Shown: positions 10,363 to 63,444 of the stretch, piece after piece
How positions within the stretch are numbered: the first letter of the stretch is position 1
Layout of the letters: each line of letters opens with the position of its first letter
Origin: Acidimicrobiia bacterium
GTDB taxonomy: Bacteria > Actinomycetota > Acidimicrobiia > Spongiisociales > Spongiisociaceae
DNA length: 64,000 nucleotides
Assembly: GCA_022827785.1 (NCBI GenBank)
Contig: JAJEIM010000042.1
Coordinates: 2,924 to 66,923 of the forward strand
Direction of reading: 5' to 3'
Program-made: the position numbers and the translations under genes
Notes under the pieces: model-generated
Databases searched by the model: none
Seen by the model: only the letters and a program-made list of their open reading frames with translations
What the model was told of the DNA's origin: nothing

Positions 10363-10433
10363 CCTAGAGGTAATCAAGTTCTTGTGGCCCTTGAGACAGT
10401 TGGGTGCCCATCTCGTCCCCGGGGTTACAAAGC

Positions 10434-10480
10434 CACCGACCACTGACCACTGACCACTGACCACTGACCACTGGCCACTA
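10434..10480. repeat. Tandem heptanucleotide array (CACCGAC, CACTGAC x4, CACTGGC, CACTA) about 6.7 copies
   Basis: Read directly from the sequence, immediately upstream of the alaS start. Partially inverse-complementary to the 10321-10362 array. Confidence 0.85.
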
Positions 10481-10491
10481 ACCTGCATCTG

Positions 10492-15602: not shown

Positions 15603-15624
15603 TTGAATGTGTCACATCCGCGTT
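15603..15624 (+). promoter_or_regulatory. Candidate sigma-70-like promoter (TTGAAT -35, TATAGG -10-like) in a lower-GC intergenic patch
   Basis: TTGAAT-(15 nt)-TATAGG, read directly. Flanked by the inverted hexamers TGTGAC/GTCACA. Confidence 0.3.
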
Positions 15625-15837
15625 ATAGGTTGTTGGATTACCGCAATTGCCAAGCGGTTCGGCACCGACGTCGACCGGACCTCCGGAGGGATCAAATCGT
15701 TCGAGGTGGCCCCGTGGAGGGCATAGCGGACCGCGTCTCGAACCCAGGTGGTGGCGGTGGAGGAGGGCCCGCCGGGTCGGGTTTGGCGTGGCGATTTTCG
15801 CGTCATCTTTCCGATGCAGGACACAAGGAGCATGCTG

Positions 15838-15939
15838 ATGAAGACGGGGATGGGTTGGACCGCGATGTCTCTACCAGGGCTTTCATTGCCGAACTATCAG
15901 GCCACCCGGCCACTCTTCAGCACCCTCCTGGTGGACTAG
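15838..15939 (+). CDS. Candidate small protein (33 aa) with a strong SD, immediately upstream of the prepilin peptidase
   Basis: AAGGAG at 15825-15830, 7 nt before an ATG. ORF MKTGMGWTAMSLPGLSLPNYQATRPLFSTLLVD. No recognisable homology. Confidence 0.25.
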   Translation: MKTGMGWTAMSLPGLSLPNYQATRPLFSTLLVD

Positions 15940-15942
15940 GCG

Positions 15943-18514: not shown

Positions 18515-19153
18515 TCAGGCGCCCCGGTATTCCAGGATGACGAGGAGCATCCAGGGTGCGTAGAGCAGGGATGGAACGTTGGCGGTGATCCACCGGTAGC
18601 GCGGCGCCCCGTACTGGAGCGCCGGCCAGGCCAGTGCCAGGGCTATCAGACCCGCCGGCCAGGCCCGGCCGCCCACCACGCCCAGATAGGTAGGTACGAG
18701 GTCGAACAGTTCGGAGAAGCGGGCCAGCGCCGAGGCCGACAGGTCTGCCAGCCGGCCGGTGATCCACATGCAGACCAGGATGGCCGGCACCCAGGTGAGG
18801 AGCGTCTCCCACGGTTCAGCCTCCGCCCGCCGACCGGATCGCCCGAGTCCCCCCTCTGCGGCCAGGCCTATCACCGCCGCGCCGAGCATCAACACCGCCA
18901 CGCCGACCGCCAGGACTTCGGACTCCGGCGGCGCCAGATTCAGCGTGAGCAGGCCGAGCCCACCCAGGGCCATCCCGATCCCCATGCCGGCGAGTCCGGT
19001 GCCGATGACCGCCAGCACTACCCCGAGCACCGTCCGCAGCGACTGGATGCCGATGGTCGCCCACCTCCAGACCTCGGACCCGGGCTGGAGAGTCGGGGGC
19101 AGCAGTTCCGGGACGTTCCGGCGCCGCCGCTCATAAGGTGGGTAGTCGGTCAC
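18515..19153 (-). CDS. Hypothetical integral membrane protein
   Basis: 212 aa with several hydrophobic helices (GLAGMGIGMALGGLGLL...). No recognisable family. Confidence 0.5.
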   Translation of the reverse strand: MTDYPPYERRRRNVPELLPPTLQPGSEVWRWATIGIQSLRTVLGVVLAVIGTGLAGMGIGMALGGLGLLTLNLAPPESEVLAVGVAVLMLGAAVIGLAAEGGLGRSGRRAEAEPWETLLTWVPAILVCMWITGRLADLSASALARFSELFDLVPTYLGVVGGRAWPAGLIALALAWPALQYGAPRYRWITANVPSLLYAPWMLLVILEYRGA

Positions 19154-20397
19154 CGGACGGCTCCCCGTCTCTCGGACCGCTGCAGTGCCTCCCAGTAGAG
19201 CTCCACCGGATGAGCGACGCGGGCCTCATGGCCGAGTTCGCTCAGGTAGCTGCGCAGCTGGATCTCGCATCCCGGATTGGCGCTGGCTACCAGAGTGGCG
19301 CCGGTCGCTTGCACCTGTTCCGCCTTGGAAGAGCCAAGCCGGCTCGACATGTCAGGCTCCAGCAGGCTGTAGATGCCGGCCGCGCCACAGCATCCACCGT
19401 TCGGGTCGACCTCGACGACGGTCAGGCCTGCCGCGGCCAGGATCTCTCGGGGCTGGTCGGTAATCCGCTGCACATGCCGGAGATGGCAGGGGTCCTGCAC
19501 AGCCACCCGGTCGCCGCTAGCGCTCAATCTGGGGAGCCTCCCGTCGACGATGGCCTCCGCCACCACGTCGTTCGCATCGGCCACCCGGGTGGCGAGCTCC
19601 TCCCCGCCGTCGGCCCAATGGTCGTACTCCTTCATGTGGGCTCCGCACCCGGCCGAGTTGACGACTACCAGGTCCACTCCTCGGAAGGCCGCCATGTTCA
19701 CGGAGGCCATCTTCCGGGTGTCGTCCGCCCAGCCGTCATGCGCGGCGAGTGCTCCACAACAGGTCTGGCCCCGGGGTGAGACCACTTCCCACCCTGCCGC
19801 CGCCAGCAGCTCGACGGTGGCGGTGTGGACATCCCCGAACCAGGCGTCCATTACGCAACCGGCCAGGAGAGCGGCCACCCCCCGTCTCTCCCCCCGTGCG
19901 GCCCGAGTCCTCCCTACGATCGAGGGTGGCCTCCCCTTGAGCGATCGCATCCCTGCCAGGCTGCCCCGGATCCGGCGCGGCGCCAATCTGTCGAGCCGGG
20001 ATGACTGGGCGATCGACGCGGCCACCGCACCTAGACGAACCGCCGTCCGGCTGCGCAGCAGGCGGGCGGTCACCAGCCGCCGTAGCCGGCGGGTGAACCC
20101 CGATGTCTGGGCGGCTATCTCGGCTCTGGCACCCTCCATGGCCCGGCCGAACGGCACGAACGACGGGCACACGACCTCGCAGGCGCGGCATTGCAGGCAT
20201 GCGCCCATGATCTCCTCGAAGCGGCTGTCCACGGGCCTGCCCGCGGCGACCGCCGACATCGCGGTCAGGCGTCCTCTCGGCGAGGCTGTCTCCAGCCCGG
20301 TCAGCCGGAAGGTGGGACAGCTCGGCAGGCACAGCCCGCACTGGATGCACGAGGAGAGCTCGTCTGCTCGCGGCGCGTGACGGGTCACCCAGCTCAT
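19150..20397 (-). CDS. glcF: Glycolate oxidase iron-sulfur subunit (GlcF-like, 4Fe-4S plus CCG domains)
   Basis: CIQCGLCLPSCPTF and CLQCRACEVVCPS ferredoxin motifs plus cysteine-rich CCG repeats. Overlaps upstream glcE. Confidence 0.8.
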   Translation of the reverse strand: MSWVTRHAPRADELSSCIQCGLCLPSCPTFRLTGLETASPRGRLTAMSAVAAGRPVDSRFEEIMGACLQCRACEVVCPSFVPFGRAMEGARAEIAAQTSGFTRRLRRLVTARLLRSRTAVRLGAVAASIAQSSRLDRLAPRRIRGSLAGMRSLKGRPPSIVGRTRAARGERRGVAALLAGCVMDAWFGDVHTATVELLAAAGWEVVSPRGQTCCGALAAHDGWADDTRKMASVNMAAFRGVDLVVVNSAGCGAHMKEYDHWADGGEELATRVADANDVVAEAIVDGRLPRLSASGDRVAVQDPCHLRHVQRITDQPREILAAAGLTVVEVDPNGGCCGAAGIYSLLEPDMSSRLGSSKAEQVQATGATLVASANPGCEIQLRSYLSELGHEARVAHPVELYWEALQRSERRGAVR

Positions 20398-28564: not shown

Positions 28565-28659
28565 GCCTCCGTAACCTGGGGGACTAGAGGCTACCGCGCG
28601 GTTTGGTGATCTCGGGCGCTTGAGTGGGACGACCGGCGATGACGAGAGAGCAAACGGCC

Positions 28660-29022
28660 CTAGCTGAAGCTGTTGCCGCAACCGCACGACCGGGTTACGT
28701 TCGGGTTGTTGATGGCGAAACCCGCACCCATGAGGCCGTCCTGGTAGTCCAGGGTCGAACCGCGCAGCAGGTCCACGCTCTGGCGGTCAACCACCACGTT
28801 GAGACCGTCGAACTCCTCGATGACGTCGGCGTCGGACCTGTCGGAGTCGAAGAACATCTCGTACGAGAATCCGGAACACCCTCCGGGGCGGACGGCCATA
28901 CGCAGGGCCAGGGCAGGGTCGCCCTCGGAAACCAGCAACTCGCGTACCTTGGCGACCGCTCCATCGGTCAGCGTGACCGCCCGCATCGGTCGGCGCGAGG
29001 TGATGTTGACAAGCTGTTCCAT
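28660..29022 (-). CDS. HesB/IscA-family iron-sulfur cluster insertion protein (ErpA/SufA-like)
   Basis: C-terminal CGCGNSFS and internal GCSGFSY cysteine motifs. 120 aa from the internal ATG. Confidence 0.8.
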   Translation of the reverse strand: MEQLVNITSRRPMRAVTLTDGAVAKVRELLVSEGDPALALRMAVRPGGCSGFSYEMFFDSDRSDADVIEEFDGLNVVVDRQSVDLLRGSTLDYQDGLMGAGFAINNPNVTRSCGCGNSFS

Positions 29023-29256
29023 CCGGGCACTCCCCGATCGACCGTCCGGGCCATCCCGAGGAATTGGCCCGACGCGGGCATTATACAAGCGGTCGACAGC
29101 CAACCGCGGGCGAGGCGGCGCTGGCGGTCGAACCCGTGCGGCACATTTGCTGCTTCCGTGGTCCGGCCTGCCGAAGGCCGTGCGCAGCATGGCGTGTCGA
29201 GAACGACGTCATTGGCGATAAGGTGGGTCGATCCGACGGATGGCGCGGAGACGACC

Positions 29257-30396
29257 ATGCCACAAACCCTCACCGAAGACCGGATCATGGAGGCCCTACG
29301 AGGGGTGATGGACCCTGAACTCGGTTCGGATGTGGTCGATCTGGGGATGGTGCGCGAAGTGGTACTCGATGAGGGTGTCGTGACCATCGGACTGGCCCTG
29401 ACCATCGCCGAGTGTCCCATGCGGAGCCAGATCGAGAACGACACCGTCCGCAGGATCGAGGCGATCCCCGGGGTGCAGAGGGTGGAGGTCAAGACCCGGG
29501 CCATGACGAGGAAACAGCGCTCGGAGCTGATGGAAGTGGCCCGCCGCCGCGCCCGGGAGAACGCCGCACCCACCCGCGTTCCGCCCACCACCAGGACGAT
29601 CGCGGTCGGGAGCGGCAAGGGCGGCGTCGGCAAGAGCTCGGTCTCCGTCAACCTGGCCCTGGCGCTCGGCCGGATGGGATACCGGGTCGGGTTGCTCGAT
29701 GCCGACATCTGGGGATTCTCGATCCCCAGGATGGTGGGGACGGACGCCCGGATCGGAGCTGACCCGGACACCAAGCTCATGCAACCGGTCGAGGCCTACG
29801 GCATCAAGGTGGTGTCCACGGGCCTGATCATCGAATCTGAGGAGACTGCGCTCATGTGGCGGGGCTTGATGCTATCCAAAGCGCTGGAGCAGTTCCTGCA
29901 GCAGGTCGCCTGGGGGAAGCTCGACTACCTGGTCATCGATCTGCCTCCCGGCACGGGCGATGTCCAGATGGCCCTGTCCCGCCTGCTTCCCCAGTCGGAG
30001 ATGATCGTGGTGACCACCCCTTCCCTGACCGCTCAGAAGGTGGCGATCAGGGTGGCCGACATGGCGCGTCGCTCCGCGATGCCGGTGGTCGCGGTGATCG
30101 AGAACATGTCCTACTTCGAGACTCCGGACGGGCAGCGGTTCGAGCTGTTCGGTCGCGGAGGGGGTGAGGCGCTGGCTGACTCGCTCAACATCCCGCTCAT
30201 AGGAGAGATCCCCCTGGATCCGGCCCTGGGCGCCGGCGCCGACCGGGGCGAGCCGGTGGTGGTCGTCCGACCCGATGGTCCCGCGGCCCGGGTCTTCATG
30301 GAAGTGGCCGGAAGGCTGGTCGTCCTGGTCCCCCCGGCCGAAGCCGAGACCTGCACGGGCCGGATCGCCAAGCTGATGGCGGCGCTCACCTCGTAG
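29257..30396 (+). CDS. apbC: Iron-sulfur cluster carrier protein ApbC/Mrp (NBP35 family ATPase) with N-terminal DUF59/MIP18 domain
   Basis: Deviant Walker A GSGKGGVGKSSVSVNLA, and DADIWGFSIPRM. N-terminal domain (MEALRGVMDPELGSDVVDLGMV) typical of Mrp. Start at the ATG 29257 inside the long ORF 28624..30396. Confidence 0.88.
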   Translation: MPQTLTEDRIMEALRGVMDPELGSDVVDLGMVREVVLDEGVVTIGLALTIAECPMRSQIENDTVRRIEAIPGVQRVEVKTRAMTRKQRSELMEVARRRARENAAPTRVPPTTRTIAVGSGKGGVGKSSVSVNLALALGRMGYRVGLLDADIWGFSIPRMVGTDARIGADPDTKLMQPVEAYGIKVVSTGLIIESEETALMWRGLMLSKALEQFLQQVAWGKLDYLVIDLPPGTGDVQMALSRLLPQSEMIVVTTPSLTAQKVAIRVADMARRSAMPVVAVIENMSYFETPDGQRFELFGRGGGEALADSLNIPLIGEIPLDPALGAGADRGEPVVVVRPDGPAARVFMEVAGRLVVLVPPAEAETCTGRIAKLMAALTS

Positions 30397-46924: not shown

Positions 46925-47572
46925 GTGTCTTACAATCGCAGCTTCATGGCGACGATTGTCTATATCGACGGGCTCAACTTTTACTACGGTGCTGTAAGGG
47001 GGACTGCCTACAAGTGGCTTGACTACCAGGCGCTTTGCGCACGGCTGCTTCCGCGCGACCAAATCACCAAGATACGCTACTTCACGGCGCGAGTCACCGG
47101 ACTCCCCCATGATGCGAGCGCGGCGACTCGGCAGGACACCTACCTACGCGCCCTCGAAACCCTCGCGCTCGTCGAGATTCACTACGGCCAAATTGTCACC
47201 AGGACCCGGAGGTTGCCGCTGGCCAATCCGACCCCAGGCAGCCCACGAACGGTGGAGGTTCTGGTGACCGAGGAGAAGCGGACCGATGTAAACCTCGCTA
47301 GCTACCTCCTACTCGATGCCTTCACCGGTGCATGCGACACGGCGGTCGTTGTCTCGAATGATTCGGACCTTGCCGAGGCCATCGACATCGCCACGAATGT
47401 CGCCGGAATCAAAGTGGGGGTGGTGAATCCCCACCCTGCCCGATACCGCTCACGACATATGTCGGGAACGTTCTTCAAGCAGTTGCGCTGCGGGATTCTT
47501 CGCCATTGCCAGCTCCCTTCGGAGCTCCACGACGATGCGGGAAGAGCCATCCGGAAACCAACTACCTGGTAG
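46925..47572 (+). CDS. NYN-domain (PIN-like) ribonuclease family protein
   Basis: IVYIDGLNFYYG ... AVVVSNDSDLAEAI matches the NYN/LabA-like fold. Locally lower GC. Alternative ATG start at 46946. Confidence 0.7.
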   Translation: MSYNRSFMATIVYIDGLNFYYGAVRGTAYKWLDYQALCARLLPRDQITKIRYFTARVTGLPHDASAATRQDTYLRALETLALVEIHYGQIVTRTRRLPLANPTPGSPRTVEVLVTEEKRTDVNLASYLLLDAFTGACDTAVVVSNDSDLAEAIDIATNVAGIKVGVVNPHPARYRSRHMSGTFFKQLRCGILRHCQLPSELHDDAGRAIRKPTTW

Positions 47573-47597: not shown

Positions 47598-48854
47598 TCA
47601 GCCGAGAGCGAAGTCGAGGGCGTCGATCAGCCGGTCGATTTCGTCTTCGGTGGTGTAGTGGATGAAGGACATCCTCAGCACGCCGGGCTTAGTCGGTATC
47701 CGCATTTCGTCGAGGAGGCGCGGGGCGTAGAAGTCCCCGACGCCGACCATCATCCGGCGCCGGACGAGCGACTCCGCGACATCCGCAACCGGGCGTCGCA
47801 AGGGGACGATCGACACGGTGGGAGCCCGCCGGGTGGCGTCAGTCGGGCCTGCCACCCGCACATCGTCCCGCCCCGAGAGGCAACGCAGCAACCGATCCAG
47901 CAGCCTCGTCTCGTGGGCCCGGAACATGTCATGGACCGCCCGGCCTCGCTCCACCGGGGTCGCAGGAGGTCCTCCATGGTGGGCGTACAGGTCATCCACG
48001 TAGTCGATCACTCCGGCGCACGCCGCGATCTGGGCGTGGTCCTGACCGGCGGGCACCAGCTTGAAGCGAGGCTCGTCGGCCACGAAGTAGTGGCCCTCGT
48101 TCCCGAGCCTCTCCGCCAGTTCGCGGCGGACGAACATCACCCCCTGGTGCGGGCCCCAGGTCTTGTAGGCGGAGAAGAGGTAGACATCCACGCCTGACCC
48201 GCCGATGTCGGGCAGGCCGTGGGGAGCGTAGGACACGCCGTCGACCACCACCTTGGCGCCGACCTCCGCCGCCCGGGCCACCACCTCGGTGACCGGATTG
48301 ATGGCGGCCACCACGTTCGAGGCGTGGGGGAAGGCGACGAGTCTGGTGCGTCCGGTGATCAGCTTGTCGAGATCGGCCAGGTCCAGGGTCCCCTTCTCAG
48401 GATCGACCCGCCACTCCCTGACGACGATCCCCGTCGCCTCCAACCGCCTCCACACGCCGGCGTTGGCCTCGTGGTCCTGGGTTGACGCCACGATCTCGTC
48501 CCCCTCGCGCCACATCGACCTGAACGCCCGGGCCAGGACGTAGGTGTTCTGCGAAGTGGATGGCCCGAAATGGATCTCGTCCACCCCCACGCCCATCCAT
48601 CCCGCCATCCGCCGGTACGAGTGTTCCATCGCCTCGGTCGCCGCCTGGGAGAGCGGGAACGGATGGTCGGGCTGGACCTTGGTGCGGCGGTAGAAGCCGG
48701 TGAGCCGGTCGATCACCTGGCGGCAGACGTAGGAGCCGCCGGCGTTCTCGAAGTGCGCCCAATCCCTGAGGTCGGGGTCGGCGAAGGCCGGGAACCGGCT
48801 GCGGGCATACGCTACGTCGAGGGGTCCCAAGGATGCCTTCGCCTGTGCGTTCAC
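47598..48854 (-). CDS. Class V aminotransferase-fold PLP-dependent enzyme (cysteine desulfurase/epimerase-like)
   Basis: 418 aa. LFSAYKTWGPHQG (PLP-lysine context), class-V fold. Confidence 0.75.
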   Translation of the reverse strand: MNAQAKASLGPLDVAYARSRFPAFADPDLRDWAHFENAGGSYVCRQVIDRLTGFYRRTKVQPDHPFPLSQAATEAMEHSYRRMAGWMGVGVDEIHFGPSTSQNTYVLARAFRSMWREGDEIVASTQDHEANAGVWRRLEATGIVVREWRVDPEKGTLDLADLDKLITGRTRLVAFPHASNVVAAINPVTEVVARAAEVGAKVVVDGVSYAPHGLPDIGGSGVDVYLFSAYKTWGPHQGVMFVRRELAERLGNEGHYFVADEPRFKLVPAGQDHAQIAACAGVIDYVDDLYAHHGGPPATPVERGRAVHDMFRAHETRLLDRLLRCLSGRDDVRVAGPTDATRRAPTVSIVPLRRPVADVAESLVRRRMMVGVGDFYAPRLLDEMRIPTKPGVLRMSFIHYTTEDEIDRLIDALDFALG

Positions 48855-48945
48855 GCGCCCGAGTTTGCCAGATCGGGGCGCTCGGTACCGGTGGTCACGA
48901 CGCGGATGCTCCTCCGGTCAGCCGCAGCTACGAGCCGCTCCCGGC

Positions 48946-49371
48946 TCAGACTCGCTCCAGGACGATGACCGGGATGACCCGCGAGGTGCTGGACTCGTAC
49001 TCCGCGAACTGCGGGTAATCCCGCTTCTGCCTGGTCCAGATCTGATCTCGCTCGTCTCCGGTGGCGACGCGGGCGTGGACCCGGACCGTGTCGGTCCCGA
49101 CCTCCACCTCCGTACCCGGATTGGCCACCACGTTGTGGTACCAGTCGGGGTTGGTGTCCGCCCCGGCCTTGGAGGCGAAGATCGCGTAGCCATCGGCCAA
49201 GTCCTGATACACGAGCGGTGTGACCCGCCGGGTCCCGGTGCGGGCGCCCGTGTTGTGAAGGAGAAGCAGGGGCTTCCCGTCGAACATTCCTCCTACCCGG
49301 CCACCGTTGGCGCGGAACTCCTCGATGATCGCCTTGTTCCAGTCGTTCATGTCCCTATTCCGATCGCTCAT
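48946..49371 (-). CDS. Deazaflavin (F420)-dependent nitroreductase family protein (Ddn-like, DUF385)
   Basis: LLLLHNTGARTGTRRVTPLVY...ASKAGADTNPDWYHN pattern of the Ddn/F420H2-dependent family. Internal ATG start (141 aa). Confidence 0.7.
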   Translation of the reverse strand: MSDRNRDMNDWNKAIIEEFRANGGRVGGMFDGKPLLLLHNTGARTGTRRVTPLVYQDLADGYAIFASKAGADTNPDWYHNVVANPGTEVEVGTDTVRVHARVATGDERDQIWTRQKRDYPQFAEYESSTSRVIPVIVLERV

Positions 49372-49563
49372 CCTGCGCTCCGATCCGTGTCCTTGCTCAA
49401 GGGACTGTCGAAGCCCGCGCCGATGATGCCATGGTCCTGTCACAACCGTAAGGCTGATCCGTCGATCCTTCCTGGCGCCATGGCGGATCGGCTGGTAAAA
49501 GTCCCCACCGTGCGGGAGAAAAGTCTGTTTTCCACATGCAAGGGCCAAAGCAAATCATAAGTT

Positions 49564-50742
49564 ATGATGGCTAATCGGAACACGACGTGCTTCAGAGACG
49601 AGAGTAATGGGGATGGGTCGAGAAAGGCAGCCTTCGACTCCGCGCCGGCGGCTGGGATGATGGCGAGTCGAGGATCCGGGGGAGCGGTGTCAGCTATGCC
49701 AACCCGGCGTAGTGTGGTACTTGAGAACGTCCCGCTGGCCTCGCCGTTTCCTGAGGGTTGGTACTTCGTCACGAGCCGTAAGGCGCTCGAAGCCGGGATG
49801 ATCGAAAAGACCTGGATGGGGGAGAAGATCGTCGCCTGGAGCGACGAGAACGGGAACGTGTGCGTCGCCGGCGCCTTTTGCCCGCACCTTGGCGCCGATC
49901 TGGGACCGACCGCGGGAGGGCGCATCTGCGATGGGAGGCTGGTCTGCCCGTTCCATGGCTACGAGTTCGACGCGACCGGCCAGTGCGTGGCCACCCCCTA
50001 TTCACCCCCGCCTACCAAGGCGAAGTTGCGCGTCTTCGAGACCCGGGAAATCGCCGGCATGATCTTCGCCTGGTGGGGGATCGGGGGGCGGGCACCGCAA
50101 TGGAGCCTGGCTGACGACGATCTGGACCAGGACGGATGGACCGGTCTCAAGATCAGGACCGTCCGCTTTCCCGGCCATCCCCAGGAGACCACGGAGAACT
50201 CGGTGGACGTGGGCCACCTGCGCTACGTCCATGGCTATGACAGCGTGAGTCGTGTCGGGCGGGTCTCGGTGGACGGGGCGCGTCTTGAGAGCGACTTCGA
50301 CTTCATGCGCACCCGGACCATCGGCAAGGTGTTGAACCTCACCTTCGACGTGGCGGCGCGTACCCGTATCTTCGGGTTGGGCTATTCGTTCGTGCAGATC
50401 CGCGAGCGCTCGATCGGAATGGACATGCGCCTGTGGGTGCTGGCCACGCCGGTCGACGGTTTGCTCATCGACCTGTCACTGGTTTCGCAGGTGCGGGAGA
50501 TACGCAAGCCGCGGCGGTGGATAGCGGGCCTGGGGTTTCTGCCGGTGAAGTTACGCGCCCCCATCATGAACCGGTTCATTTCCGCTCAGCAATACGGGGA
50601 CGTCCAGCAGGACGTGATCATCTGGAGCCGCAAACAGTACCGATCCCGCCCGCTTCTCTGCCGTTCCGACGGCGAGATCATGCCGTTCCGGCGCTACTGC
50701 GCCCAGTTCTACCCCGACCGGGGCGACCCGGAGAACCGCTAG
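49564..50742 (+). CDS. Rieske [2Fe-2S] non-heme-iron oxygenase, KshA/Neverland-like
   Basis: Rieske motif CPHLGADLG-x17-CPFHGYEF. Mononuclear-iron motif E-x3-D-x2-H-x4-H (ENSVDVGHLRYVH). About 390 aa like KshA. True start may be a later M. Confidence 0.75.
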   Translation: MMANRNTTCFRDESNGDGSRKAAFDSAPAAGMMASRGSGGAVSAMPTRRSVVLENVPLASPFPEGWYFVTSRKALEAGMIEKTWMGEKIVAWSDENGNVCVAGAFCPHLGADLGPTAGGRICDGRLVCPFHGYEFDATGQCVATPYSPPPTKAKLRVFETREIAGMIFAWWGIGGRAPQWSLADDDLDQDGWTGLKIRTVRFPGHPQETTENSVDVGHLRYVHGYDSVSRVGRVSVDGARLESDFDFMRTRTIGKVLNLTFDVAARTRIFGLGYSFVQIRERSIGMDMRLWVLATPVDGLLIDLSLVSQVREIRKPRRWIAGLGFLPVKLRAPIMNRFISAQQYGDVQQDVIIWSRKQYRSRPLLCRSDGEIMPFRRYCAQFYPDRGDPENR

Positions 50743-50860
50743 CGCGCGAGCTGACCGGATCGGGGGTATGCAGATGGCCCGCTGGGGAGGGACGTGTTCT
50801 CTCGGTTTTCGCGTTCTTGATGCCCGGGTATGGGCGACGAACTGCTGAATCAGCGCCCTC

Positions 50861-51949
50861 TTACAGCGGCTTGCGGGCCAGGAAACAATACAGCGGTGTG
50901 AAGATCCCGGCCCTGCCACCCGCGACATATGCCCTGGCGGTCCGATCCATCAGCCTCACGACGTCCGCGGTGCCTTCCGGAAATATCTTCACCAACTCGG
51001 CCAGCCTGAGTCCCCCGATCATCGCCTTCCGGCCCAATGGGACCCTGTACAGGGTGCCGCCCGGCGTGCCGCGCCGGGTCTCCATGGGCCGATACCAGGG
51101 AACGGGGTGGCTCGGACTGTTCTGCGCTACGGCCCGATCCTTCCCTTCGAGGACCTCGAATCCCGCTTCTTCGAGCGCCCGGTTCACCTCGCCCGTGGTG
51201 GCGATTCCGTCGAGCGCGATGCCGTGCATCAGCTCATGCTCGATGGCTCGGTGCCGGTCGTCGTCGGGATCGAACCTGTCCGTCAAGCACATCTCCTGGC
51301 CCCAGAAGAGAGCTCCGGGCTTGAGAACCCGGTGGATCTCCGCGAACGCGCTCACCTTGTCCGGCGCATGGCACGTCGATTCGATGGCGTAGCCGCGGTC
51401 GAATGTGTCGTCCGCGACGGCGCTCATGTCCATGAAGCTGCAGGCAAGGTAGTCGACCACGTGGTCGAGACCCGCCTCGGCATTCAACGACTTCGCCTTG
51501 TCCAATTGGAGATCGTTGTTGTTGACGCCTACGACCCGGACACCACCCTCCCGAACGACACGGCGCATCGGGCCGCCGATCCCGCAACCGACGTCGATCA
51601 CGGTCATGCCCTCGCGCAATTCCAGCTTGTCGATCATCAGTCGCTGGTGCCTGATCTGCGATTCTTCCAGGCTCTCCTCGGGCGACAGTGGCGCGAAGTG
51701 CAGGGACTCGCTCCAACCGAACACCATGAACTCCCCGCAAAGGTCGTAGTAGTCCCTCACGGTTTTGGCGTGGTCGTAGGCTGTTGCGCCGGTTCCCGTG
51801 CGAATTGCCCGGTCGGTCCATCCGTTGAAGTGGCGCACGCGACCGGCGACGTCCGTCCCACGGTACGTCGCCTTGAGCCCGGTGGCTAGCTCGCGCAGAC
51901 CCATGAACCCTGGGACATCAACAGCGACGGGGTGTCTTCTCGTGTCCAT
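50861..51949 (-). CDS. Sterol 24-C-methyltransferase (ERG6/SMT)-like SAM-dependent methyltransferase
   Basis: SMT region I YYDLCGEFMVFGWSESLHF. SAM motif VIDVGCGIGGPMR. GVNNNDLQLDKAK and YAIESTCHAPD match ERG6-family signatures closely (ERG6: GLNNNDYQI..AK, YAIEATCHAP). Internal ATG start at 51949. Confidence 0.85.
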   Translation of the reverse strand: MDTRRHPVAVDVPGFMGLRELATGLKATYRGTDVAGRVRHFNGWTDRAIRTGTGATAYDHAKTVRDYYDLCGEFMVFGWSESLHFAPLSPEESLEESQIRHQRLMIDKLELREGMTVIDVGCGIGGPMRRVVREGGVRVVGVNNNDLQLDKAKSLNAEAGLDHVVDYLACSFMDMSAVADDTFDRGYAIESTCHAPDKVSAFAEIHRVLKPGALFWGQEMCLTDRFDPDDDRHRAIEHELMHGIALDGIATTGEVNRALEEAGFEVLEGKDRAVAQNSPSHPVPWYRPMETRRGTPGGTLYRVPLGRKAMIGGLRLAELVKIFPEGTADVVRLMDRTARAYVAGGRAGIFTPLYCFLARKPL

Positions 51950-52109
51950 TCTCCGCGCACCAGAAAATACTACAGGGAGAGAGAGGCGATCATGGCTACG
52001 GCGGCAGGATGCATCCGAGAGGGATCCTGCCCACCCGTCGAATCGGTCTAGATCCGTCCGGTTCGGCGCCACGGCCAGTACCGGGCCACACTCTCGAGTG
52101 GATCGCCTC

Positions 52110-54137
52110 CTACACCGGCAGTTCGTGCCGCTGCGCGGCGATGACGAACTTCAGCTTGTTGTTCACCGACGAAGATGGGAACGGGCTGATCTTCAGCTTG
52201 TACCTGGCGGGTGAGATCTCGAGGGTGAAATGGTGTACGAGCATCAGCAAATGGATCGCCATTTGAAGTGACGTCCACCGGGAGCCCAGGCATGTGTGGG
52301 TACCCAGACCGTACGGCGCAAATGAGGATCCGACGTGTTCCCTGCGCGGCGCTAGATAGCGACCGATATCAAACGAGAAGGGATCGGGGAAGACTTCCTC
52401 CATGTAGTGTGTGGCCGTTTGGGCAATCACGACCCGGGACCCCTGCGGGAGTTCGTATCCGTCAACTGTGCACGTGTTCATCACGTTTCGATAGGATGCC
52501 GGCACGATCGGATAGACACGCATGCACTCCATGATGAACCGGCGTGTGACGTCTATCCCAGGTCCGGTGATCTCATCACGATCGGGATCCCCGTTGGCGA
52601 ACAAGGCATCGGCCTCGCCCTGGATCTTCTCGTAGAACTCGGGCTGTGACACCATCGCGTAGGTGATCAAGCCAAGCTGGTCACCCACATACATGCTTGC
52701 GATCAACGGCGCCGAGAGCACGAACGGCAGATTCGACTCCGGGAGGAACTGCCGGTCGCTCGTATGCATGCTCAGAAGGTCATCGGCAAGATCGCGAGGG
52801 CACCCTGCCCGCTGGGCGGGCGTGTGGACGCTCTGGACTCGTTCCACAACCTCTCCGACCAGCTTCGCCCGGCGCTTCATGGCAGGAGTACGCAGCATGA
52901 ACTTGGGCATGTTCCTGACGACATGGGTCTGAAGGGCTCGTTCCTTGAACTTGTGCAGGTCATCGACGAGATCCTGGGAATCGATACTGACGGTGAGCGG
53001 CGACATTGTTGCGTTGACCAGGCGCCTGCACATCGCCTTCGCGGGAAGCACATCTCCGACAGACCAGGCTGCCATGTGGTTCCGGGCATTGGAGTAGACC
53101 TCATCCAGCTGAGCTTCCAGCCTCGCGCGTGAATAGGCCGGCTGCATGGACTTGCGATACCGGAAATGATCACCACCGTCGAGGGTAGGCAATAACCCCG
53201 ATCCTCCGTATACCTTCTCGAAGTCCTCCAGATAATCCTTGGCCCTCAGATACATGCGCCCGTGCCGATGCACCCAGTGGTTCATTTCTGGTCCGGCGAG
53301 AAAGATCATCGGGTTGGCGAAGGGTGGACGAACCTGGAACACGGGACCATATTCTTGCGCGAGCTCTGCAAATAGTGCAGGAATATTACCTTGACGAAGG
53401 TGTCGACTGCCCAGCAGATGGCGAAGCGGCGCAACCGGAATCGGCTTAGCGAAAGCGGAGGGTCTGAACAAGGACCCAGCCAGGTTGTCGCTAACTGCTG
53501 CGGCGATGGACCTGCCGATCAGGTCCATCTTGCCGATGAATTCAACACGCCTTTCCGACTCTTCATCAAGGTCAAATATGAAGCGCAAGACATCACATGT
53601 ATTGATGAGACAGATGATAATGATATCTCTAGGGTCCGGAATCTCGTTGGCGAAGATCGCTCGACCGAGGCGCGTCTTGACGAAGTCTACAGCAGTACCT
53701 TCCCCAGATCTGGCATACGTGTCCTTCTGACATCCGCCCCGGGCCAACGACCAGAAGTCACCGTCGTGGTGCTGCAAGATCTTCAGGTCGACCAATCGAT
53801 CAAGGGTTAAGTCGATAATCGATTCTGCACGGGGAGCGAGCCGTTCGATCCAGTACTGGGCGTTCCGCTGAACCGGCTCTGCGGCGATCTTCTCGAGAAT
53901 AGGATCCAGGGCAGGATCGCCTGTTTCTGTTCGATCCAGAAGGATCAAGGAATCCATATCCGTGTCGATACGAGATAGCAGCGACAGCTCTCCCAACACG
54001 GCGCCGATAACGGCACAGTTCAGATCCCACCCGGGAACCTGCCGGAAGTAGCCACTCTCCTCGTTGAGGAGCGTGAGGACGAACTCGTCGAGCAAACTGA
54101 GCGTCTGACTGGTCGCACTGCTTGCGGTAAGAGTCAT
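52110..54137 (-). CDS. Cytochrome P450 with N-terminal GPP34/GOLPH3-like domain (fusion, 675 aa)
   Basis: C-terminal P450 has EXXR (ECMRVYP) and heme-thiolate loop FAPYGLGTHTCLGSRW. N-terminal about 200 aa match the GPP34 family (LLDEFVLTLLNEESGYF..VPGWDLNCAVIGAVLGELSLLSRI ... DPRDIIIICLINTCDVLRFIF). Lower GC than the flanks. Confidence 0.85.
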   Translation of the reverse strand: MTLTASSATSQTLSLLDEFVLTLLNEESGYFRQVPGWDLNCAVIGAVLGELSLLSRIDTDMDSLILLDRTETGDPALDPILEKIAAEPVQRNAQYWIERLAPRAESIIDLTLDRLVDLKILQHHDGDFWSLARGGCQKDTYARSGEGTAVDFVKTRLGRAIFANEIPDPRDIIIICLINTCDVLRFIFDLDEESERRVEFIGKMDLIGRSIAAAVSDNLAGSLFRPSAFAKPIPVAPLRHLLGSRHLRQGNIPALFAELAQEYGPVFQVRPPFANPMIFLAGPEMNHWVHRHGRMYLRAKDYLEDFEKVYGGSGLLPTLDGGDHFRYRKSMQPAYSRARLEAQLDEVYSNARNHMAAWSVGDVLPAKAMCRRLVNATMSPLTVSIDSQDLVDDLHKFKERALQTHVVRNMPKFMLRTPAMKRRAKLVGEVVERVQSVHTPAQRAGCPRDLADDLLSMHTSDRQFLPESNLPFVLSAPLIASMYVGDQLGLITYAMVSQPEFYEKIQGEADALFANGDPDRDEITGPGIDVTRRFIMECMRVYPIVPASYRNVMNTCTVDGYELPQGSRVVIAQTATHYMEEVFPDPFSFDIGRYLAPRREHVGSSFAPYGLGTHTCLGSRWTSLQMAIHLLMLVHHFTLEISPARYKLKISPFPSSSVNNKLKFVIAAQRHELPV

Positions 54138-54301
54138 CCGTCCGCCCCTCCGTTACCCAACCATGGAAACCTTAGCATGCAGGGGCTGTTTCGAGATCTG
54201 CGGGATAGGGCGAGGAGGGTGACGAATCCTGCCACCGCGTCACCTATGGCGAGCTTCGGGTAAAGGCACCCTGGCGGTCCGCGAGCAACTAGCCTGGGGC
54301 C

Positions 54302-55072
54302 ATGGCTCAACTACAACTCCGTCCGCTAGGTGTCGGCGAGATCGTCGACGCCACATTCACCGTCTACCGGCGCCGCTTCGGCCCGATGTTCGCCATCGCG
54401 CTGATGCTCGTGTTCATCCCGTTCCTCATCAGCCTGGTCGGTGGCTGCAGCCTCGACGCGAGCGGCACGACCACATGTACGTCTCCCATCGGCTGGCTCG
54501 CGTACATCGCAGGCTCGATCGGCACCCTCGTGGCGGGCACGGCTGCCGCCCTGGTGGCGGCCGAAGCCTATGCAGGTGTCCCGTCCGACTGGCGGCGAGC
54601 GACGAGGATCGGGCTTCGTAGAACCCTGGCGATCATCGGGGCGACGATCGTGGCCGGGGTGCTGATCGCCATCGGATTCGTGCTCGTGATCGTCCCGGGT
54701 ATCTTCCTGGCCGTGTCCCTCGCGGTGGTCTGGCAGGCTCTGATCATCGAAGGCGCTGGTCCGATGGAGAGCATCAAGCGGTCGTGGCGTCTGGTGGCCG
54801 GCGAGCGCTGGAGGGTGTTCGGGGCCGGCTTGCTCGTCATAATCATCGCGATCATCGTCTTCGGGGTTGCCTCGGCGGTGATCTGGCTCATCCTCTCGGC
54901 CGGCCTGGGAGTGAGCGGAGATACGGGCGGTTACCTCGTCCAGCAGGTAGCCACCCTGCTGTCAGTCCCGCTGAGCGCCGCGGTAGGTACGGTCATCTAT
55001 CTCGATCTGCGGGTGCGCAAGGAGTCGCTCGGCACGGCCGAACTCGCCGCCGCTCTGTCCGAACGGGGCTGA
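54302..55072 (+). CDS. Hypothetical polytopic membrane protein
   Basis: 256 aa, multiple TM helices. N-terminal GEIVDATFTVYRRRF resembles GPDPase-membrane/DUF-type families. Weak. Confidence 0.45.
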   Translation: MAQLQLRPLGVGEIVDATFTVYRRRFGPMFAIALMLVFIPFLISLVGGCSLDASGTTTCTSPIGWLAYIAGSIGTLVAGTAAALVAAEAYAGVPSDWRRATRIGLRRTLAIIGATIVAGVLIAIGFVLVIVPGIFLAVSLAVVWQALIIEGAGPMESIKRSWRLVAGERWRVFGAGLLVIIIAIIVFGVASAVIWLILSAGLGVSGDTGGYLVQQVATLLSVPLSAAVGTVIYLDLRVRKESLGTAELAAALSERG

Positions 55073-55161: not shown

Positions 55162-55238
55162 GGCCCCGTCGTCCAGCCGGCCTAGGACGCTGGCCTTTCA
55201 AGCCAGAAACGCGGGTTCGAATCCCGTCGGGGCCACCA
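55162..55238 (+). tRNA. tRNA-Glu (anticodon TTC), CCA encoded
   Basis: Manual fold. Acceptor GGCCCCG/CGGGGCC, D-stem GTCC/GGAC, anticodon stem CTGGC/GCCAG, loop CTTTCAA, T-loop TTCGAAT. Confidence 0.85.
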
Positions 55239-56545: not shown

Positions 56546-56617
56546 TCGGGAGTGGTGTAATCGGCAGCACGACAGGTTCTGGCCCTGTTAGTAGGGGTTC
56601 GAGTCCTCTCTCCCGAG
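56546..56617 (+). tRNA. tRNA-Gln (anticodon CTG)
   Basis: Manual fold. U1-A72 acceptor TCGGGAG/CTCCCGA, D-stem GTGT/GCAC, anticodon stem ACAGG/CCTGT, loop TTCTGGC, T-arm AGGGG-TTCGAGT-CCTCT, discriminator G. Confidence 0.8.
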
Positions 56618-56644
56618 CGGTTGGTATCATTCGCCACACGCAGT

Positions 56645-56717
56645 GGCCCCGTCGTCTAGGGGCCTAGGACACCGCCCTCTCAAGGCGGAGACGCCAGTTC
56701 AAATCTGGTCGGGGCTG
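56645..56717 (+). tRNA. tRNA-Glu (anticodon CTC)
   Basis: Manual fold. Acceptor GGCCCCG/CGGGGCT (G1-U72), anticodon stem CCGCC/GGCGG, loop CTCTCAA, T-loop TTCAAAT. 27 nt after tRNA-Gln. Confidence 0.8.
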
Positions 56718-57111
56718 CGATAGAACGACCCGGTCGGACCCATCACCGTGTGAAGGGTTCCGGTCGGGTCATTCCTTTCGCTGTCTCGGACGGCTCTTCG
56801 CAAACGAGCGGGTCGATATGTGTCCGACCGAGAGCCTCGCTCCCGAAAATCCGGTGCTTCGCATCGGGCCCCGCCCCCACCACCACCCATCCTGTTGGAG
56901 CGTGGTCGGCCATGCCCGGCTGGATGCCGGGGATCGGCTGTCGCTCCATGAAGCCTTCCATGTTCCCTCGGTCCGGCCGGTCCGATCGTCATCGGCCGGT
57001 TAGGTGCTTGGCGATGGGCACCTTATAGCGGGGGTGTGACGATTCCGGCCACGATCTGCGAGAACGCGAAAGAACGGTAAGGAAGCGCCTCCGCGATCGG
57101 TGAGGGTCGTG

Positions 57112-57819
57112 TCAGGCGCGTCCGAACACGGGGACGACCGCTCCGGACATGACCCCCGATTCGCCGGTCAGGATGAACTCCGCCACCGCCGCGATCTCGT
57201 CAGGGGTGGGCCACTTGACGTACTCCGCGAAGGGCAGCGCCCGGCGGGTGGCGGGCGTGTCGATAACCGACGGCAGGATCACGTTGACGGTGATGTCGGC
57301 GTCCTCCAGTTCCGCCGCGGCGGTCTTGGCCAGGGCGACCACCCCCGCCTTGGCGATGTTGAAGGCGGCCTGCCCGGGCGGGTTGTCCACCACCGCCCGG
57401 CTCCCGACCAGCAGGATGCGGCCGTCGCCGGCGTCTTCTAGGTGGGGGACGGCGGCCCGCACGGTGTAGAAGGCCGACCGAAGGTTGAGGTCGATCATCC
57501 AGTCGAACCGTACATCGTCGGTGTCTTTCACATCCCGGCCGGCGGCCCAGCCTCCCACCAGCGAGGCGACCGCGTCGATGCGGCCGAACCGGGCTGCCAC
57601 CCTGGCCATGAAGTCCTCGACCTCCCCGGACTCCGTGGCGTTGACGCGGCGGAGGACCAGCTGGTCCTCATCGAAGGGGAACCGTTCCTCGAACTCGTCC
57701 GTATCGATGGGCCTCAGGTAGGTGGCGCCGATGCGGTAGCCCTGGCGGATCAGCCGCCCGGTGAGGGCGGTACCGAGCCCGCCGGTGGCGCCGACGATGA
57801 CTGCTACGGGGCTACTCAT
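57112..57819 (-). CDS. SDR family NAD(P)-dependent oxidoreductase
   Basis: VAVIVGATGGLGTALTGRL (TGxxxGxG). Catalytic YxxxK lies in the downstream region. Internal ATG start chosen. The ORF-track start is 57858. Confidence 0.75.
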   Translation of the reverse strand: MSSPVAVIVGATGGLGTALTGRLIRQGYRIGATYLRPIDTDEFEERFPFDEDQLVLRRVNATESGEVEDFMARVAARFGRIDAVASLVGGWAAGRDVKDTDDVRFDWMIDLNLRSAFYTVRAAVPHLEDAGDGRILLVGSRAVVDNPPGQAAFNIAKAGVVALAKTAAAELEDADITVNVILPSVIDTPATRRALPFAEYVKWPTPDEIAAVAEFILTGESGVMSGAVVPVFGRA

Positions 57820-57823
57820 GGGG

Positions 57824-59143
57824 TCAGGATATAACGATCCGTTCGGCGGTGGAACCACTCCCCGATCGGTCGACGATCCACAGGTCGGCCACGTTGGTTC
57901 CCGTCCTGCCGGTCCGGAGCAGGCCTCCCGCCTCCTTCAGATACGGGTAGGAATCGCAGGCGTCCAGGTGGCGCCGGGCCAGTTCCGGATCGGTGACCGT
58001 GGCGCCGTCCACGCAACCACCGGCCGCATCGGTCGGGCCGTCCACGCCGTCGGTTCCGAACGCCAGGAACCGGTGGTCGGTACCGGCGATCTCGATACCG
58101 GCGGTGACGGCGGCGTGCTGGTTGCGACCGCCCCTGCCCCTCCCGCTCACCTCCACGGTGGTTTCTCCGGCCAGGACCCGAACGGTGCCCTCCGGCGTGG
58201 CGGCCAGCTCCCTCAGGACGGCGTCGACGGCCTCTCCGGCCAGCTGCTCGGGGGCCGGCGACACGTCCGGGCCCGTTGAGGACAGGAACCGGACCGCCGC
58301 CCGCCCCGCGGTCATCCCGTCAGCCAGGATCAGGGCGAGATCGTTCCCCGTCCCATGCCTGGCATTCGAGACCTCGACCCCGGTGGCAGCGACACGCCGG
58401 ACCCGATCCGCCGCTCCACCCCGGATGGAGTACCGGTCGAGTATCTCGCCCAGGGGGGCGGGGTTGCGTGGTGCCGTGACGGTAGGGCCGGAAGCCACCA
58501 CCGCCGGGTCGTTGCCCACGTCGGAGACCACCAGCGTGACGACCGGGCTCCGGCAGCGGGCCGCCAACCGTCCGGCCTTCACTCGCGACACCGCCTGGCG
58601 GACCTCGTTGATCGTCTCGATGGGGGCGCCGGAGTGGATCAACTGGTCGTTCAGGTCCTGGACGTCGTCGAGGCTGAGACCCTCGGCCGGCGCCTCCAGC
58701 AGGGCCGACCCGCCGCCGGACACGAGCGCCAGCAGGAGTTCACCCCGCTCCACGTTCCTGGCAAGGTCGATGGCGCGCTCGGCCGCCCAGACGCTCCCCT
58801 CATCGGGGACCGGGTGACCCCCCACCGCCAGTTCCGCCCAATCGGGCGCGTGACCGGCCCGGTCGGTCGCCACCAAGCCCCGCGATACCAGCGGTCCCAG
58901 GGCGTCCGCCGCGCCGAGGCTCATGCCGGTGGCCGCCTTGCCGAAAGCCAGTACGGCCACCCGCCGTGCCGCGATGAAATGCCCTCCGGCGAGGACCCCG
59001 CCCTCCGTGGGAACGAGCGTGGAGCGCACCAGCCGCCGGGGATCCACCTCCTCCAATGCCGCGTCGACGGCGCCGAGCAGGCGGCCCGTGGCTCGAGGAT
59101 TGACCGCGCGGAGATCGCCGAGCCGGTCACCCGCAAGTCCCAT
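57824..59143 (-). CDS. Glycerate 2-kinase (MOFRL family)
   Basis: MOFRL/DUF4147 architecture. 439 aa. Overlaps the upstream PIG-L gene stop. Confidence 0.8.
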   Translation of the reverse strand: MGLAGDRLGDLRAVNPRATGRLLGAVDAALEEVDPRRLVRSTLVPTEGGVLAGGHFIAARRVAVLAFGKAATGMSLGAADALGPLVSRGLVATDRAGHAPDWAELAVGGHPVPDEGSVWAAERAIDLARNVERGELLLALVSGGGSALLEAPAEGLSLDDVQDLNDQLIHSGAPIETINEVRQAVSRVKAGRLAARCRSPVVTLVVSDVGNDPAVVASGPTVTAPRNPAPLGEILDRYSIRGGAADRVRRVAATGVEVSNARHGTGNDLALILADGMTAGRAAVRFLSSTGPDVSPAPEQLAGEAVDAVLRELAATPEGTVRVLAGETTVEVSGRGRGGRNQHAAVTAGIEIAGTDHRFLAFGTDGVDGPTDAAGGCVDGATVTDPELARRHLDACDSYPYLKEAGGLLRTGRTGTNVADLWIVDRSGSGSTAERIVIS

Positions 59144-62107: not shown

Positions 62108-62983
62108 GTGTATCCATCCGCGTTCGACTACTCGGCGCCCGGCAGTCTAGAGGAGGCCTTGGCCAGCCTGGCCGAGTTGGGTGATGAGGGCCGGGTCCTC
62201 GCCGGAGGCCAGAGCCTTATCCCCATGATGAAGCTCCGGCTGGCGGCGCCGGGCCATCTCGTAGACATCAACGGCGTCAGCGAACTGGCATGCATCAGCG
62301 AGTCCAACGGCCATCTGGCGATCGGGGCGCTGGCTCGTCACGCCGACGTGGCCTCATCGGAGGCGGTGAGCCGCCACAACCACACCGTGGCCTCCGCCGC
62401 GCCGTGGGTGTCCGATCCGCTGGTGCGGAACCGGGGAACCCTGTGCGGCTCCGTGGCCCACTGCGACCCCGAAGGCGACTGGAACTCGGTGATGCTGGCG
62501 GTGGGCGCCTCCGTGGTGGCCCGCTCATCTTCGGGCGAGCGGGTGATCCCCATCACCGACTTCATAGTTGACTTCTTCACCAACTCGCTCCACCCCGGAG
62601 AGATGGTCACCGAGGTGCGGATCCCCGCGTACCGGGGGCCTGCCGGGGGCGCTTACCTCAAGCTGGAGCGCAAGGTCGGCGACTACGCCACCGTGGGGGT
62701 GGCCACCCATCTCGTTCTCGACGATTCGGGGAACGTGGCGGAGGCGGGCCTGGGCCTGACCGCTGTCTACGGCCACAATCTGAAGGTCACGGAGGCGGAG
62801 GAGATGATGGCCGGGCAGACACCCGGACCGGAACTGTTCGCCGAGGCCGCGGCCATCGCAGCCCGTACCTGCGATCCCGATGACAACGTCCGGGGTCCGG
62901 CCGAGTACAAGCGGGCCGTGGTAGCCGAGTACACCAGGCGCGGGTTCGCCCAAGCGCTGACCCTGGCAAGAGGGGAGGGCTGA
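62108..62983 (+). CDS. Xanthine dehydrogenase-family FAD-binding (medium, CoxM-like) subunit
   Basis: [17 protein letters not shown]-binding motif. 291 aa. Followed by small and large subunits. Confidence 0.8.
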
Positions 62984-63444
62984 TGCAGATCACCGTCAAC
63001 ATAAACGGCGCCAGCGAGACCCGGGATGTCGAGCCCAGGCGCCTGCTGGTCGACTTCATCCGTTCGGATGCCGGCCTTACCGGGACCCATATCGGCTGCG
63101 ACACCTCCTCCTGCGGTGCTTGCACCGTCCTTCTCGACGGCCGGCCGGTCAAGTCCTGCACGGTGCTGGCGGTCCAGGCCGACGGCAGCGAGGTGAAGAC
63201 CGTGGAGGGTCTGGCCGAGGGTGGCGAGCTCCATCCGGTCCAGGCGGCCTTCAAGGAGCACCACGGTCTGCAATGCGGGTTCTGCACGCCGGGGATGATG
63301 CTGGTGGGCAGTGCCCTGCTCGAAGAGAATCCGGATCCGAGCGAAGAAGAGGTCCGCTGGGCCATTTCCGGCAACATCTGCCGCTGCACCGGTTACATGA
63401 ACATCGTGACGGCCATCCAGGCCGCGGGCGGAGAGGGGAGCTGA
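62983..63444 (+). CDS. (2Fe-2S)-binding small subunit (CoxS-like)
   Basis: [11 protein letters not shown] and [16 protein letters not shown] cysteine motifs. ATGA-coupled to the medium subunit. Confidence 0.85.

Follow-up and report, generated by a model that had tools for sequence, protein, structure and literature searches.

Which reaction, and on which substrate, is served by a Rieske oxygenase gene that lies beside a gene of the sterol methyltransferase (SMT) family? The question is posed by a 64-kb stretch of DNA (64,000 nucleotides (nt); called the window below) from an Acidimicrobiia bacterium (assembly GCA_022827785.1, contig JAJEIM010000042.1), in which an earlier note, made from the sequence alone, had described the open reading frame (ORF) at 49564-50742 as a Rieske oxygenase of the KshA/Neverland class. 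We found that this gene marks a compact set, spread over at least four sponge-dwelling bacterial lineages, in which an SMT is physically linked with two oxygenases and an exporter. Arguing by analogy, we lean towards the view that the set tailors and exports sterols and that the Rieske enzyme acts within it as a ring-directed hydroxylase or desaturase.

The Rieske oxygenase and its relatives

The ORF at 49564..50742 (+) was real and intact when read directly from the window, but its start probably lies further downstream than the earlier note had placed it. The extra 44 codons from 49564 were not conserved among homologues; database homologues began at M45, as did a called protein that is 100% identical (P0001). 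At the DNA level, the two closest relatives (L004 and L005) were homologous from 49670 onward but not across 49490-49670, and a Shine-Dalgarno-like run that can be read from the sequence, GGGGGAG (49680..49686, +), precedes the ATG of 49696 by 9 nt. Because of the homologue starts, the extent of DNA homology and this run, the true coding sequence is most likely 49696..50742 (+), 348 amino acids (aa) long and starting 132 nt downstream of 49564. A promoter and terminator scan of 48800-54400 returned sites no more numerous than in shuffled controls.

Two Pfam domains were matched in the 348-aa protein, Rieske (aa 22-105; 60 bits, cutoff 20.3) and KshA_C (PF19298, aa 126-339; 79 bits, cutoff 23.3), the latter at full length (profile positions 2-207 of 207). 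No third Pfam domain appeared even at E<=10, and the PaO, Ring_hydroxyl_A and VanA_C catalytic domains were unmatched. The ligands of the Rieske [2Fe-2S] cluster were read directly as C62-P-H64-X19-C84-P-F-H87 (49879..49956, +), and the mononuclear iron motif as E167-x3-D171-x2-H174-x4-H179 (50194..50232, +), in which H174 and H179 are iron ligands and D171 is the counterpart of the bridging Asp of KshA. The carboxylate ligand of the iron is D306 (50611..50613, +), which falls opposite Mycobacterium tuberculosis (Mtb) KshA D304 in the alignment and completes a 2-His-1-carboxylate site with its bridging Asp (D171, H174, H179, D306). All Rieske and iron ligands were invariant across 24 aligned homologues. 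Judged from its domains and ligands, the gene encodes an intact and catalytically complete alpha subunit of a Rieske non-haem iron oxygenase of the KshA structural class, as the earlier note had read from the two metal sites.

The closest solved relatives were KshAs by sequence and by fold. In a phmmer search of the PDB, KshA5, KshA1 and Mtb KshA ranked best and matched over both domains (E 1e-19 to 1e-24, 73-90 bits), followed by SxtT/GxtA, DdmC, phthalate dioxygenase and NdmA. The same three KshAs headed the Foldseek comparison of an AlphaFold (AF2) model (pLDDT 78, pTM 0.81) with the PDB, at TM 0.73-0.79 and 22-24% identity; DdmC, NdmA and phthalate dioxygenase were weaker matches. Clustering with PAO/Tic55/choline monooxygenase or aromatic ring-hydroxylating families, which the earlier note had set against membership of the sterol-active clades, was not observed. 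The KshAs of Rhodococcus (KshA1, KshA5) and M. tuberculosis (Rv3526; PDB 4QDC, 4QDF and 2ZYL) share with the window protein the Rieske plus KshA_C layout, a similar length and the same 2-His-1-carboxylate site with bridging Asp, whereas the Rieske ligand pairs are separated by X16 there and by X19 here.

Kinship in fold did not extend to orthology. An exhaustive HMMER search of 1.84 billion cluster representatives recovered 405 representatives of 50%-identity clusters at E<=1e-30, every one of them closer than any solved KshA, and the names of 10 representative relatives were all generic ('Rieske 2Fe-2S domain-containing protein'). Because of the 22-24% identity to KshA and the 405 closer clusters, the protein belongs not with KshA orthologues but to a large, uncharacterised branch of its own among KshA-fold oxygenases. 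The comparison thereby defines a clade of enzymes that may be hydroxylases or desaturases. The other resemblance proposed in the earlier note, to SdmA, the Rieske sterol C-4 methyl oxidase of Methylococcus capsulatus (MCA1016), did not survive at the sequence level. Although SdmA is likewise a bacterial Rieske enzyme that acts on a sterol in a biosynthetic setting, the NCBIfam SdmA equivalog (NF052579) scored 28.2 bits against a cutoff of 600, its alignment was confined to the Rieske domain and the catalytic domains did not align; SdmA identity was therefore rejected.

A five-gene set and its distribution

A scan of one genome per GTDB species returned 583 Rieske relatives, from which the best 80 of 583 were taken with 10-kb flanks. 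We counted neighbour families lying within 10 kb of the Rieske gene in 81 non-redundant loci, and separately in the subset of 65 loci with full flanks; tblastn and an independent all-against-all ORF clustering agreed on the same five conserved families, that of the Rieske gene included. A GPP34-cytochrome P450 fusion accompanied the Rieske gene in 72 of 81 loci (60 of 65 with full flanks), an RND pump of the HAE3/MMPL type with a Patched/sterol-sensing-like domain in 69 (58 of 65), an SMT in 57 (47 of 65) and an amine-oxidase-fold flavoprotein in 51 (40 of 65). All five genes, the Rieske gene included, occurred together in 38 of the 81 loci and in 31 of the 65. Minor neighbours were an MFS transporter (20 loci), an LppX/LprAFG-like lipoprotein (18 loci) and an ERG4/ERG24 sterol reductase (8 loci). 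De novo ORF clustering over the 81 loci gave no other widely conserved neighbour, including any reductase, ferredoxin or SdmB-like protein. These conserved partners had escaped the earlier note, in which neither the GPP34-P450 fusion two genes away nor the RND pump and flavoprotein of other genomes were considered. We found no paper that links the five genes in the literature searched.

We assigned a locus to the set when a Rieske gene of the clade defined by at least 66% identity lay within 10 kb of a GPP34-P450 fusion, as is the case in the window, which holds three of the five genes (Rieske, SMT and GPP34-P450). Related associations occurred outside this clade. At one locus (L085) the Rieske gene is 57% identical and has an MMPL/Patched pump gene and a GPP34-P450 gene next to it; at another, of Gammaproteobacteria type (L173), it is 39% identical and is accompanied by GPP34-P450, an SMT, an FMO-like flavoprotein and an AcrB-type RND together with its adaptor. 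The association of Rieske gene, GPP34-P450 and pump is older than the clade defined by at least 66% identity. In a more distant relative (P0126) the sole notable neighbour was an adjacent AcrB-type RND, and the loci of the distant relatives P0290 (Polyangiaceae), P0161 and P0279 were uninformative in context.

The genes occurred in 38 different arrangements yet remained together, and the set proteins were 53-88% identical across phyla. Record titles of the best 80 relatives named mostly Dehalococcoidia, other Chloroflexota and SAR202 metagenome-assembled genomes (MAGs), with MAGs of Acidimicrobiia, Binatia, Deltaproteobacteria and Thermodesulfobacteriota also among them; the nearest relatives with conserved flanks were the Acidimicrobiia MAGs L004 and L005. 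In a neighbour-joining tree, a Binatia/Deltaproteobacteria group was nested inside Chloroflexota sequences, and so were Acidimicrobiia sequences of two separate lineages. Because shuffled but linked genes of such identity coincide with this nesting, we believe that horizontal transfer took place under selection for linkage, and the sequences point to a set that is mobile among bacteria of several phyla.

Sponges recur as the apparent habitat. To judge by isolate names, many of the MAGs would come from sponges (RHO1-3_bin, SB066x_bin) and one from a coral (Plut), and names of the jk18x and p16x kind hint at the Ircinia MAG study (PMC9531527). When 241 million JGI metagenome records were scanned for a pattern of the cassette-type SMT, 109 relatives emerged, and the 80 of 109 listed included the LXNI, LXNJ and JGIcombinedJ30088/Ga0209021 series, which Brown et al. 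(2023) assigned to the sponges Sarcotragus foetidus, Petrosia ficiformis and Aplysina aerophoba; other listed matches (the MKWU, Ga0209754, Ga0209022, Ga020954x and JGI2479x series) carry no sponge assignment here. The GPP34-P450 architecture has been described as a monophyletic group of 656 proteins exclusive to sponge symbionts (PMC11706023), the GPP34_L proteins, of which the window gene at 52110-54137 is a member; rare GPP34-Rieske fusions exist as well (PMC11706023). That study treats GPP34-P450 as a possible phagocytosis effector, reports no linkage to Rieske, SMT, RND or flavoprotein genes and contains 0 mentions of sterol, methyltransferase or MMPL.

In the window, the gene adjoining the Rieske gene is a bona fide SMT-family member, in agreement with the earlier note. 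It lies on the opposite strand (50861..51904, -; 347 aa as called in the source assembly, with an ORF that reaches 52072) and encodes CMAS/Methyltransf_11 and Sterol_MT_C (56 bits) domains and the motifs FGWSESLHFAP, IDVGCGIGGP and YAIESTCHAP. Next to it is the GPP34-P450 fusion (52110..54137, -; 675 aa), with GPP34 at aa 15-215 (nt 53493-54095) and P450 at aa 245-661 (nt 52155-53405); the haem Cys sits in YGLGTHTCLG, and the best PDB relatives of the P450 part were CYP725A4, CYP120, CYP51 and CYP90B1, which are of terpenoid or steroid type. In L004 and L005 the Rieske and P450 genes are convergent and ~25 nt apart, and the window differs by a clean insertion of 1.35 kb (50763..52099) that carries the SMT gene only. 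The closest SMT relatives among the matches listed (L090 and L150; 82-83% identity) lie elsewhere in their genomes with no Rieske or P450 genes nearby, which argues that the SMT was brought specifically to the Rieske-P450 junction. G+C content was 0.548 in the GPP34 part and 0.585 in the P450 part of the fusion, compared to 0.64-0.65 in the Rieske and SMT genes and 0.67 in the window; the low value suggests a more recent or different foreign origin of the GPP34-P450 gene.

Several features of individual loci were noted alongside these counts. In many genomes the RND gene directly follows the Rieske gene on the same strand, and in L003 the two overlap by ~50 nt (Rieske 10001-11104, RND 11055-13568), an arrangement that hints at a Rieske-RND-SMT operon with translationally coupled genes. 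Several genomes carry, along with the set, another SMT-like paralogue of divergent sequence, which has the N-terminus MPFKLSKTLKDK... (L030:17577-18623, L042:15039-16064, L050:14837-15934, L064:16224-17249 and L066:11121-12194). The ERG4/ERG24-family sterol reductase (Pfam 140 bits) adjoins the set at L034:14161-15300, at 7 other loci and in a sponge metagenome contig (L094). P0279 (645 aa; L087-L089) is an Acidimicrobiia Rieske/KshA_C protein, 41% identical to the window protein, that was found on 88 contigs beside hydrogenase maturation genes; its N-terminal extension of 296 aa matches no Pfam family and does not resemble GPP34. A GPP34 domain was likewise considered for the first 296 aa of the 645-aa Rieske protein P0150 and rejected, with no Pfam hit and a BLASTP E of 0.48 against the window fusion.

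Substrate and role of the set

Four hints agree on a sterol: the Sterol_MT_C domain and SMT motifs of the methyltransferase, the sterol-sensing/Patched domain of the RND pump, the ERG4/ERG24 reductases beside the set and a P450 of steroid or terpenoid type. Each is weak alone, yet all point the same way. In the pathway we propose, the substrate would be a sterol-like lipid, host-derived or symbiont-made, as the genomic context suggests. The SMT would alkylate its delta-24 side chain, a step for which a side-chain double bond is required; the P450 and the Rieske enzyme would oxidise the molecule; the flavoprotein would shift or reduce a double bond; and the RND pump would move the product into or across the envelope. 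As in related oxygenases, electrons from an unlinked and probably generic ferredoxin/reductase would enter the Rieske [2Fe-2S] cluster (C62, H64, C84, H87) and be relayed by the bridging D171 to the mononuclear Fe(II), whose ligands are H174, H179 and D306 and at which O2 would be activated. By analogy with KshA, which acts at C9, and with Neverland/DES7, which act at C7-C8, the Rieske reaction would most likely be a hydroxylation or desaturation of ring B/C. More speculatively, delta-5 or delta-24 host sterols may be converted to 24-alkyl, delta-5,7(22)-type sterols; Tetrahymena alters exogenous sterols with DES7-type desaturases. That the five genes form a single symbiosis-specific, horizontally exchanged pathway, which would turn host or self-made sterols into ring-oxidised, side-chain-alkylated sterols for export, is a stronger claim that we advance only tentatively.

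If the set does act on sterols, it would offer a concrete pathway of at most five genes by which symbionts could modify the sterols of sponges. The oldest claimed animal biomarkers are founded on sponge sterols whose side chains are alkylated, and the bacterial share in making these sterols is disputed; bacteria would then contribute directly to unusual sponge sterol inventories and hence to sterane biomarkers. The GPP34-P450 'effector', so far discussed only as a factor of phagocytosis evasion, would in that case have a metabolic role, as a membrane-docked sterol enzyme.

A number of observations weigh against sterol tailoring. Within the 64-kb window there is no OSC, CYP51 or other sterol source gene, and tblastn at E<=1e-10 found no homologue of the RND pump or of the amine-oxidase-fold flavoprotein. 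Seen from the SMT, linkage is looser, with a Rieske gene in 20 of 45 long SMT loci, and the 80 of 109 cassette-type SMT matches listed include no SMT contig that Brown et al. tested. The position attacked by the enzyme is not transferable from KshA at 22-24% identity and in an uncharacterised clade. The link to Neverland, DAF-36 and Tetrahymena DES7 (cholesterol 7-desaturase) is qualified too. These Rieske oxygenases modify a 3beta-hydroxysterol but leave it undegraded, as would suit enzymes of a tailoring set, and they carry the same iron motif; desaturase and hydroxylase chemistry are not distinguishable from sequence, however, and the Neverland proteins are eukaryotic whereas the window gene is bacterial. 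The motifs C-X-H-X16-17-C-X2-H and E/D-X3-D-X2-H-X4-H are said to define a KshA/Neverland group (PMC7609953). The window protein has the second exactly but departs from the first, with X19 between its Rieske ligand pairs where X16-17 is given for KshA and Neverland; and since both carry the iron motif, that motif cannot separate the one from the other. The claimed kinship to Neverland/DES7 depends on the shared motif and on statements in that paper (PMC7609953), and no Neverland/DES7 structure was among the PDB sequence or fold matches.

The substrate also need not be a sterol, because SMT-family enzymes can methylate acyclic triterpenes, as the TMTs of Botryococcus do. The Rieske enzyme might instead oxidise another hydrophobic molecule (squalene, an acyclic or cyclic terpenoid, a hopanoid, or a host or xenobiotic lipid) before efflux. 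The family of the SMT, with its triterpene methyltransferases, would accommodate such a substrate, and so would the other partners: the RND is a generic HAE3-family pump whose NCBIfam scores are far below the cutoffs for hopanoid and sterol transporters (93 against the HpnN cutoff of 752, 26 against the BstA cutoff of 1400), the pump of the gammaproteobacterial variant (L173) is AcrB-type, and the flavoprotein has as its best solved relatives two proteins that are not sterol enzymes, LkcE and a fatty-acid double-bond isomerase. In NCBIfam, the RND and the flavoprotein matched HAE3, HpnN, BstA and protoporphyrinogen-oxidase-like models at sub-threshold scores only, and sterol-synthesis genes are missing from the window. 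Set against this are Sterol_MT_C and the complete series of SMT motifs, the ERG4/ERG24 neighbours, the sterol-sensing-domain matches and the KshA-type steroid-binding fold, and we consider a non-sterol substrate unlikely, though it is the alternative that fares best.

Could the enzyme be a true KshA, that is, a 3-ketosteroid 9alpha-hydroxylase that opens ring B of host steroids for growth via the 9,10-seco pathway? KshAs are its best solved matches by sequence and fold, and KshA_C is its sole catalytic-domain match. The kshA gene often has no adjacent reductase gene, kshB being frequently unlinked to it in known degraders, and no reductase gene adjoins the Rieske gene here. Divergent KshA homologues restricted to sponge MAGs have moreover been noted and interpreted as steroid catabolism (PMC5790920). 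The identity is only 22-24%, however, with no solved KshA as close as the 405 or more cluster representatives recovered, and the company kept is not catabolic. Its conserved part in the 81 loci consists of methyltransferase, P450, efflux-type pump and flavoprotein genes; since ORF clustering gave no further conserved neighbour, no kshB, KstD, HsaA-D or side-chain beta-oxidation genes accompany the Rieske gene; and the window otherwise holds housekeeping genes only. A C-24 methyltransferase with an exporter suits tailoring, not mineralisation. We therefore regard a catabolic KshA as improbable.

Still less probable is an analogue of SdmA, a Rieske C-4 methyl oxidase of de novo sterol synthesis that would act downstream of OSC/CYP51/ERG24 clusters. 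The symbiont literature makes the idea reasonable: SMTs of sponge symbionts do cluster with genuine sdmA and sdmB (PMC10070321), Dehalococcoidia, Acidimicrobiia and Binatia are among the classes reported with LSS-CYP51-ERG24 clusters (PMC9531527), and an ERG4/ERG24 reductase lies beside the set in 8 loci. The sdmA homologues of those sponge clusters are a different family, since they are 44-47% identical to MCA1016, whereas the window protein reached 28 bits of the 600 needed and aligned over the Rieske domain alone. No SdmB-type partner lies beside the window's gene, nor is one conserved beside the Rieske gene elsewhere. The 'CSG' clusters of Ircinia symbionts (ERG24-CYP51-LSS; PMC9531527) overlap with the set in host taxa, and horizontal transfer among sponge symbionts is found in both, but none of their genes is in the five-gene set and their description includes no Rieske or GPP34-P450 gene.

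Least probable of all is a host-manipulation module, in which GPP34 would bind phosphatidylinositol 4-phosphate of the host and block phagosome maturation while the Rieske enzyme and P450 modify a host signalling lipid: symbiont GPP34 proteins have been proposed to modulate phagocytosis and GPP34-P450 is reported as exclusive to sponge symbionts (PMC11706023), but the proposal is untested there and makes no reference to sterols, methyltransferases or MMPL, direct reading of the N-terminus of the window's GPP34-P450 gave no obvious signal peptide, and the partners are cytoplasmic or membrane enzymes and a pump, which fits a metabolic pathway. Host manipulation and sterol tailoring are compatible, since a modified sterol, once exported, could in turn influence the host.

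Redox partners and other features of the window

Sterol tailoring by the Rieske enzyme would call for an electron donor, and the earlier note was correct that no cognate reductase gene is adjacent: the 64-kb window contains no KshB-type reductase, free ferredoxin or steroid-catabolic gene, and no reductase is conserved near the Rieske gene across the loci. Three candidates were rejected as redox partners, none being conserved with the Rieske gene or of KshB type: the short-chain dehydrogenase/reductase (57112-57858), the CoxM/CoxS-like FAD and 2Fe-2S subunits (62108-63444) and a GlcF-like Fe-S protein (19150-20397). The first of these, which the earlier note had already judged too distant to be a partner, is conserved in the closest relative through synteny alone and does not accompany the Rieske gene elsewhere.

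The rest of the window is housekeeping in character and includes SecDF, RelA, several aminoacyl-tRNA synthetases, GlcDEF-like genes, DNA ligase and GatB. Three tRNA genes lie 1-2.5 kb beyond the island formed by the Rieske, SMT and GPP34-P450 genes (tRNA-Glu(TTC) at 55162-55238, tRNA-Gln(CTG) at 56546-56618 and tRNA-Glu(CTC) at 56645-56718), separated from it by a gene for a DUF7847/DUF975-like membrane protein (54302-55072).

Gene calls elsewhere in the window deserve some care. Three proteins have N-termini of 215-385 residues before the first Pfam domain, namely arginyl-tRNA synthetase (15603-18479, +), YceG (13106-14680, +) and a Mrp/NUBPL-type ATPase (28624-30396, +); these may be real extensions, or first-start-codon artefacts in a high-GC genome. 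A 498-aa ORF at 5379-6875 (-) matches no Pfam family and combines gene-like third-position G+C with an unusually high first-position G+C of 0.84. For the same DNA, two public assemblies differ in the called length of an F420H2-dependent quinone reductase (48946-49548, -; 61 vs 141 aa) and of an NYN-domain protein (46925-47572, +; 102 vs 208 aa), so that MAG annotations are inconsistent at these genes.

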